Assembly (NCBI RefSeq): GCF_044647545.1
Contig: NZ_CP172818.1
Strand: one strand, 5' to 3'
DNA from: Escherichia coli
GTDB lineage: Bacteria > Pseudomonadota > Gammaproteobacteria > Enterobacterales > Enterobacteriaceae
DNA length: 64,000 bases
The first letter of the stretch is position 1. Each line of letters opens with the position of its first letter. The position numbers and the translations under genes are program-made. Below the pieces are notes generated by a model. The model was not told the origin of the DNA and did no database searches. It worked only from the letters and a program-made list of their open reading frames with translations. Positions 9,274 through 11,335 of this stretch are shown here, one piece after another.

Positions 9274-10551
9274 TCACTGCTCCTCTGCCAGCTCGGCAGC
9301 CTGATGTTGGCGCACGCGATTAAGCAATCCCGCCAGGGTGAAAACGACGATAACGCCCGCCACGACGGCTAACAGATGAAACGGCAAGCGACCGCCGTTA
9401 AACCACAGCCACCGGCCGATTTCGACCGAGACAGACATCACCATCAGGATCACCATATTCAGCGATGCGGAGACGGTCCCTTTCGGTAAGTTATTGGAAA
9501 ACAGCGTAAAGCGGAATAAGGTCGGGAAGATCAAACCAATCCCGAAAGCATACAAACTGGTGCCCAGCACCGACCACAGCCATACGTGCGGTGACAGCAG
9601 ATTGCCGATAATCAACAGCGCGAGGCCAACCAGTTGAATGGGTACGGCACGCCAGATAAAGCGCGGTTCGGTCGGATCTTTAACGAAACGCGCCACGATG
9701 GCATTCGCGACAATCACCGCGCCGAACACCGGAACCTGTGTCCAGGCGAACTGCGAGGTCGTTAAGCCGCCTGCGTCAATCAGGATCACCGGCGAGACAG
9801 CCACCCAACTCATCATTGGGATATAGCTTAAAGAGATGGTTGCTGCACCAAAGAGGAACTGCCGATTGCAAAAGACATTACGAAAATCGCGCAAGACGCT
9901 TTTGGCGCTAAATGAAACCGCGCCGCGCTTCACCGTCTCTGGCATCGCCAGCAGTAAGCCAACAAATGAGATAAAACCCATAATCGCAATGATGGCAAAA
10001 AGGACTTTCCAGTGTACAAAGTGCATCAGAGCTGCGCCGGAAAGCGGGCCGATAATCGGCGCAATCAGTACGATGGAGGTGATAATCGCCATCAACCTGA
10101 TCCCTTTTGTCTGGCCGAACGCCTCCTGCACCGTGACATAACCAACGGTGGCAATAAAACAGATACTGGTGCCCTGAATTGCACGCGCGATAAGAAACTG
10201 TGTCATAGACGTTGTGAACATTGTCGCAGCGCAGGCAAGGGTAAATATTAGCGCCCCGGTAATCAGCACCGGCCTGCGGCCAATCCTGTCGGAAAGCGGC
10301 CCCAGCAGCCACTGTAACGCCATACCGCCCGCGAGATAGAGACTGACGGCTGCCGGGGCCAGACTGACATCGGCATTAAAATCACGGACCACATTAATGA
10401 TCCCCGGCTGAATCAGGTCCGTCGACAGGTACGCGGCAAAATCATACAAAATCAACGCCATCGGGAAAAACAGCGGGGCTATCCTCTTTCTCAGGGGGGA
10501 AAGGGAGAAAGACGGAGAGGCCGCGCAGGGATCGGAGACCCGGAGGTGCAA
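9274..10551 (-). CDS. mdtM: multidrug efflux MFS transporter MdtM (YjiO); native homology stops near 10478, the first ~25 codons of this ORF are junction-derived
   Basis: ORF matches MdtM from [19 protein letters not shown] onward; the expected N-terminus MPRFFTRHAAT is absent and replaced by unrelated sequence. Confidence 0.8.
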
Positions 10552-11335
10552 CCGGAGGGGTGGGGGGGCGGGGGCCGGGGGGGTGGAGGTGTTGGGGGGG
10601 GGCAGGGAGACGGCGAGGTGCTTGCGTTTCTGTTGCCGCGTTTGGGGGAGGGAGAGGGGAGGGGGAGGGGGGGGGGAGTGTGGGGGGGGGGGGGGGGAGG
10701 GGGGGGGGGGCTGAGGGGGGGGGAGCGGTGGGGCTGGAGGGAGGCGGGGGCCGCGGGGTGGTGGGCGGGGCGGGGGGGGGGGGGCGGCGGGGGGCGTTTC
10801 CCGGGGGGGGGGGGCAGGCGAGGGGGGGGAGGGAGAGGGGGGAGCGGTGACGGCCCCTGGGCTTTTTTGGGGGAGGAAGGAGGGGGGGGGGGGGGGGGAG
10901 GAGAGAGGGCGGGGGGCGGGGGGGGGGGGGGGGGGGGGGGGGGGGGGGGGGGGGGAGAGGAGAGGGGGGGAGCGGGGAGAGGGGGTGCCGCCGGTGCGGG
11001 GGGGGGGGGGGGGGGGGGGGGGGGGGGGGGGGGGGGGGGGGGGGGGGGGGGGGGGGGGGGGGGGGGGGGGGGGGGGGGGGGGGGGGGGGGGGGGGGGGGG
11101 GGGGGGGGGGGGGAGGGGGGGGGGGGGGGGGGGGGGCGGGGGGGGGGGGGGTGTCGTGCTCGCGATGCCACGGAGGTGGCGGCGTGTTGGCTGTGGTGGA
11201 GGGACCGGCGCTTTCTACGTTGCCCTCGGCGCGGTCGGTCCTGTCGCGCGCTTCGGGCGCCCTAGGGGAGGGATAAGAGCGATCGGTGCGAATCGCGAGG
11301 GGGAGGACGCTGGTGCACTAATGACGAAACAAAGG
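10479..11335. repeat. anomalous low-complexity block, >85% G on + strand with uninterrupted G runs >200 nt; probably artefactual or synthetic filler
   Basis: Direct inspection: poly-G from about 10921 to 11150, surrounded by GGGAGG-type degenerate sequence; boundaries approximate. Confidence 0.9.

Follow-up and report, generated by a model that had tools for sequence, protein, structure and literature searches.

The window, by which we mean the whole 64,000-nucleotide stretch of E. coli DNA analyzed here, carries a block of strongly G-biased sequence between mdtM and yjiA. The native part of mdtM occupies positions 9274–10479 on the minus strand, in sequence that is 99.95% identical to strain SE15 (over 8500–10479) and 99.97% identical to strain ST648 (over 1–10479). 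The annotated mdtM of a relative's locus (L008, 9688–10920) maps to 9274–10506 of the window; the first 27 nt of the coding sequence have been overwritten by junk, and the start codon, which would lie at 10506, is lost. On the other side of the block, yjiA (11426–12382, minus strand; mapped from 12724–13680 of L008) is intact and native, and comparison with strain ST648 gives 0 mismatches per kb from 12001 on. Both flanks of the block have 100% matches in many complete E. coli genomes. In the window, mdtM and yjiA lie ~0.9 kb apart, as a preliminary description of this DNA had correctly noted.

The non-native sequence spans 10480–11393 (914 bp), and the closest genomes show no alignment there. 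On the plus strand, G makes up 67.9% of the bases over 10479–11335, 82.4% of the core (10640–11150) and 96% of 10990–11150, while the ~18% of core bases that are not G include all three other kinds. From ~43% at 10480–10560, the G content climbs in the plus direction to pure G, and at 11152 the G stretch gives way abruptly to a complex, GC-rich stretch. Uninterrupted G runs reach at most 116 nt (10998–11113); the next longest measure 22 and 14 nt. The preliminary description had placed a strongly G-biased block between mdtM and yjiA, where composition counts do locate it, and its judgment that this is not credible native DNA is borne out; its figures of more than 85% G and of uninterrupted G runs above 200 nt were too high. 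The part of the block that is template-less junk (10480–11296), with a G content that moves from 43% to 96% and is near-pure at 10998–11151, divides into three zones: by composition, a moderately complex zone (10480–10640) and an increasingly G-rich zone (10640–11151), and, by composition and searches, a complex and GC-rich zone that matches nothing (11152–11296). The only other homopolymer runs of at least 9 nt in the 64 kb are A/T runs at 50810–51007 and a 9-nt A run at 60083.

A BLAST search of the block against 5,426 complete E. coli genomes returned a sole match, a low-complexity one in strain MLI104K2, and a search against plasmids returned nothing credible, with just four chance GC-rich matches at E ≥ 0.005. 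The block has zero matches in Rfam at E ≤ 1, and Tandem Repeats Finder reports period-1 G alone; with neither an Rfam match nor a periodic unit, a structured RNA or a tandem-repeat element is ruled out as its identity. Local alignment of 10480–11296 to the ST648 and CP8-3 versions of the junction, in six sub-segments with 200 shuffles each, gave z < 2 throughout. The open reading frames inside the block encode poly-Gly or poly-Pro and nothing else. Four junk-specific open reading frames were absent from a public gene index queried by exact sequence, from which a junk open reading frame of MLI104K2 was recovered as a positive control. Similarly, two junk strings had no match among JGI metagenome contigs, and one had no match among GTDB representative genome contigs. 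We exclude a chance origin of the block, since homopolymer runs in the window are nearly confined to garbled spots and an alignable match occurs in 1 of the 5,426 genomes. A phase-variable homopolymeric tract, which would be expected to measure ~8–20 nt, to lie in a promoter or 5′ coding sequence and to be conserved in relatives, is likewise ruled out: such a contingency locus is at odds with a 116-nt run inside a ~900-nt block that is missing from all 5,426 genomes.

In strains SE15, SF-166, ST648 and IMT16316, the junction runs from mdtM through a dienelactone-hydrolase fragment, an IS1 pseudogene, brnT and brnA to yjiA. This native junction is 1,798 bp long; in the window, 914 bp of junk that does not align to it stands in its place. 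The hsd, mcr and mrr genes are missing between mdtM and yjiA in all of these relatives, and the two flanks lie at most 3 kb apart in 1,120 of the 5,426 complete E. coli genomes (~21%). The preliminary description had measured the locus against the arrangement in K-12, where we confirmed that hsdRMS, mcrBC and mrr lie between mdtM and yjiA. The ~19–20 kb expected on that basis is the wrong baseline for a window whose backbone is of the ST648 lineage, with a native junction of 1.8 kb. The same description was right that these genes are not at this locus: hsdR, hsdM, hsdS, mcrB and mcrC are absent, and of mrr there is only a noisy ~97-nt copy of the 3′ end. Since the closest genomes natively lack the immigration-control region here, its absence from the window is an ordinary, common and already known lineage trait that the block did not cause.

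The interval between mdtM (yjiO) and yjiA is a hot spot for cassette replacement. The locus is truly variable among natural genomes: ST648, SE15 and similar strains carry IS1 and brnTA, and CP8-3 carries Rpn, IS1 and mrr. What the window holds at this locus fits none of these cassettes and is no natural sequence; the one biological element is that the K-12 cassette is missing. As a separate observation, the first ~21–27 nt of mdtM (10480–10506 in the window; 10894–10920 of L008) differ between K-12 and the ST648/SE15 lineages, and since homology stops inside the coding sequence, a natural cassette boundary of the variable region lies within the 5′ end of mdtM.

The right edge of the block differs in character from its interior. 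Positions 11297–11393 (plus strand) hold a noisy, deletion-rich copy of the K-12-type mrr 3′ end, identified by local alignment: 11297–11480 aligns to the K-12 locus (L010, from 2501) with 171 of 199 columns identical and many 1-nt deletions. The best match to the mrr-like stretch among the 5,426 genomes is 87%, and the ST648 lineage has brnA, and no mrr sequence, at this position. Immediately downstream, a REP-like element (11394–11432), when aligned to the K-12 allele and to the ST648 allele, reads as a mixture of the two. Native sequence restarts at about 11425–11433, with a megablast match to relatives from 11425.

A comparison across the entire window identified five loci that deviate from all four relatives, the G block included. 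At the yjjV stop, a GC-rich junk insert of 39 nt (37796–37834), absent from the four relatives compared and from K-12, adds 13 codons to the yjjV frame and sits within a 17-nt lineage-specific segment that K-12 lacks. Between deoD and lplA, 32 bp (45149–45180) replace 290 bp of native sequence, with the loss of a 264-bp gene encoding a sigma-factor-like HTH protein; in its place, K-12 has yjjJ, a toxin gene of the HipA family. Between nadR and nadS, positions 50680–51008 (plus strand) align to a native RelE/ParE toxin gene as an A-rich, homopolymer-smoothed, collinear copy with runs of A30, A19 and T15. Finally, the 3′ half of nadS (51169–51303, plus strand) is riddled with deletions of 1–5 nt and a few substitutions relative to the close relatives, in all of which the gene is intact; the deletions frameshift it.

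The toxin gene copy reveals how the sequence degrades. Its identity to the native gene drops from 0.9 to 0.54 from left to right and then returns to 1.0 at 51009. Within it, 79 of 87 substitutions (91%) copy an adjacent base, against a baseline of 51%; 58 of the 87 are to A; deletions outnumber insertions by 49 to 5; and the end part consists of A and G only. The error mode is neighbor-copying, deletion-biased and prone to homopolymer collapse. For 10480–11296, which has no detectable template, we infer from the other four loci that it too may be a garbled copy.

Outside these loci, the window is of high quality. It is collinear with SE15 and shows 0–1 mismatches per kb to strain ST648 over 1–36000 and 0–1 mismatches per kb to IMT16316 over 36000–64000, and 52000–64000 is 100% identical to several ST648-lineage genomes. 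Only 2 private SNPs, counted as positions that differ from all four relatives, occur in the ~62 kb outside the garbled zones. By these comparisons, the backbone is a genuine, high-quality ST648-lineage chromosome. We also considered that the whole window might have been generated, and rejected this on the 100% identity of 52000–64000 to real genomes and the scarcity of private SNPs elsewhere.

Two further features of the backbone emerged from the same comparisons. At ~35000–36500, near-identity shifts from strain ST648 (NZ_CP008697.1) to IMT16316 (NZ_CP023815.1), a shift that could stem from natural recombination, which would make the backbone a mosaic, or from a consensus that is chimeric. 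Differences near 29000–30100, in a tRNA-Leu array and a REP element, were considered as possible garbling and set aside as natural, being common to strain ST648 or SE15. There, three tandem tRNA-Leu(CAG) genes lie at 29614–29936, a number also present in SE15 and IMT16316; in the assembly of strain ST648 this site has one copy, probably by assembly collapse.

All five garbled loci coincide with segments that lack a counterpart in K-12, and all else is near-perfect. Over this region, the native IMT16316 chromosome contains exactly four segments of at least 15 nt without K-12 homology, and these are exactly the G block, the HTH locus, the toxin gene and the 3′ half of nadS; the fifth anomaly, the 39-nt insert, lies at a 17-nt indel relative to K-12. 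The boundaries of garbling and of homology agree within 0–45 nt. At the left edge of the G block, K-12 homology ends at 10485 and garbling begins at 10480; at the right edge, homology between ST648 and K-12 returns at 11426 and native sequence at 11425–11433. The native segment that has collapsed at the HTH locus (252–541) agrees within ~10 nt with the segment non-homologous to K-12 (263–549). The nadS region conforms as well: K-12 has no copy of the toxin gene and, of nadS, keeps a 5′ fragment without the 3′ half, with homology at 50500–50634, 51010–51153 and 51331–51499, and the intact island in the window (51009–51168) corresponds to the retained fragment at 51010–51153. We also considered that garbling is aimed at toxin genes, through cloning bias or deliberate masking, and rejected this in favor of the K-12 homology rule, which also accounts for the nadS 5′ island, the HTH gene, the site of the 17-nt indel and the break inside mdtM. 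On these alignments, the window faithfully copies an ST648-lineage chromosome wherever that is homologous to a K-12-type chromosome, and is garbled elsewhere.

The single public look-alike of the block provides a precedent. In the RefSeq chromosome of E. coli MLI104K2 (NZ_CP116925.1), low-complexity junk takes up more than 16 kb within a prophage at about 2383270–2399600 and has been annotated as giant hypothetical proteins, including one of 4,057 aa. At the edge that we aligned, the junk begins by copying the native terminase gene collinearly but with homopolymer smoothing; identity falls through 0.92, 0.68, 0.56, 0.45 and 0.35, with z = 6.7 and 4.8 against shuffled sequence. Judged by eye, the transition at the other edge is blurred into homopolymers in the same way. 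Like the window, MLI104K2 has a low-complexity block (dominated by G/A or by C/T) in an otherwise good chromosome, and an aligned edge at which a smoothed native copy decays in identity into junk. Correspondingly, the toxin block, nadS and the mrr-like right edge in the window form collinear, homopolymer-smoothed and deletion-biased edges, and their flanks are of finished quality and match close relatives. The two cases differ in that the MLI104K2 junk is far longer (>16 kb versus 0.9 kb), replaces prophage morphogenesis genes and has an almost purely two-letter interior, whereas the core of the G block retains all three kinds of non-G base. The MLI104K2 assembly was built from ONT R9.4.1 and MiSeq reads with Trycycler, medaka and Polypolish (PMC10198576). 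From this precedent, the signature occurs in real assemblies without any need for two-color chemistry.

These data lead us to favor the view that the block is probably a technical artefact, the degenerate output of a reconstruction guided by K-12-type sequence, and not DNA that was present in the cell. The guide could have entered through a reference-guided consensus, through reads recruited on a K-12 reference, or through a neural basecaller or consensus model fitted to K-12. A decoder working under such guidance would have lost register at insertions relative to the guide, emitted neighbor-copying, deletion-prone output that collapsed to homopolymers (G in the block, A at the toxin gene), and regained register as soon as K-12 homology resumed; the noisy mrr 3′ end of K-12 type would be its output at the right edge of the block. 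Polishing with short reads or by majority may then have perfected the alignable parts and left the junk as it was. Several points weigh on this proposal. K-12 reference bias, tested at SNPs of the window, gave no allele bias, so any K-12 guide that was used left the homologous regions unaffected. Reference-guided consensus tools usually give N's or the reference sequence in uncovered regions, not poly-G. The degradation is asymmetric, with a gradual onset and an abrupt end at one site and the reverse at others; this asymmetry is not derivable from any specific tool and counts against the proposal, as does the absence of the junk from the public collections searched despite a working positive control.

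The preliminary description had offered two explanations, poly-G from two-color sequencing chemistry or synthetic filler, and of these the second stays a live rival while the first is poorly supported. Under the filler explanation, which we consider unlikely though well short of negligible, selected parts of a real ST648-lineage sequence were replaced computationally, for instance with the output of a generative model that degenerates into homopolymers, and the true flanks were kept. Autoregressive generation at low temperature typically collapses into homopolymers, copies neighboring bases and strays from a gene that the model remembers only in part; such a model could have produced the K-12-type mrr remnant by recalling the neighbor of yjiA that it knew best; and filler would also explain why the junk is absent from all public collections searched, though the control junk open reading frame was found. 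Yet the overwritten spans follow K-12 non-homology to within a few nucleotides, with every such segment included, and do not follow gene boundaries, so filler would require either a deliberate alignment to K-12 or coincidence. Moreover, lengths were not kept (1,798 bp became 914, 290 became 32, and 39 nt were added), a genuine public assembly bears the same signature, and a left-to-right sampler spliced to a fixed flank would not yield the gradual recovery seen toward the right edge.

In two-channel chemistry (NextSeq/NovaSeq), G is the dark base, and poly-G reads without signal might have been assembled as a bridge over a contig gap caused by IS1. The long G runs, the rise in G content along the plus direction to a near-pure stretch, and the A/G-only end of the toxin block, A and G being the two calls expected under correlated channels, all fit such an origin. 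However, the break lies 27 nt inside the single-copy gene mdtM rather than at IS1, the single-copy genes brnT and brnA are lost as well, and the G-rich stretch of ~670 nt exceeds any such read. Dark cycles cannot produce the T15 and C5 runs and the deletion-rich noise of the sibling loci, where the blurring involves A, T and C, nor can read chemistry know where K-12 homology ends. MiSeq is a four-channel instrument, and the sole public look-alike came from MiSeq and ONT data. What the window shows is thus neither G-only degeneration nor a block that fits within a single read at a contig end caused by a repeat, and we regard the two-color explanation as improbable, below in-silico filler. Least credible of all, and very nearly discounted here, is a tract physically present in the cell, in which a ~0.9-kb G-rich insertion replaced IS1-brnTA and the start of mdtM and was tolerated by replication. 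Its presence in the given sequence and the location in a cassette-replacement hot spot speak for it, and nothing further. During replication, a homopolymer of 116 nt would be very unstable. Searches of the 5,426 E. coli genomes, of plasmids and of the other collections gave no homologue of the block. It also removes the start of mdtM, has no open reading frames other than poly-Gly or poly-Pro ones, and is accompanied in the window by four sibling anomalies, among them demonstrably corrupted copies of known genes.

Overall, the G block is not a real biological feature; it is probably a reconstruction or consensus artefact. Biologically it is unimportant: the absence of the immigration-control region is known and common, and the poly-G is not DNA. 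The junk nonetheless carries a cost for annotation, with mdtM decapitated, the BrnT/BrnA genes, a RelE/ParE toxin gene and an HTH gene erased, and nadS frameshifted. Annotation pipelines also turn junk open reading frames such as poly-Gly and poly-Pro into hypothetical proteins, as in the case of the giant product in MLI104K2, and that junk is worth flagging to curators. The garbling of every segment absent from K-12, and of nothing else, offers a simple test for artefacts of this kind. By implication, the accessory genome of the source assembly would be unreliable throughout, and accessory genes are the defense systems, toxin-antitoxin modules and mobile elements that genome scans target.
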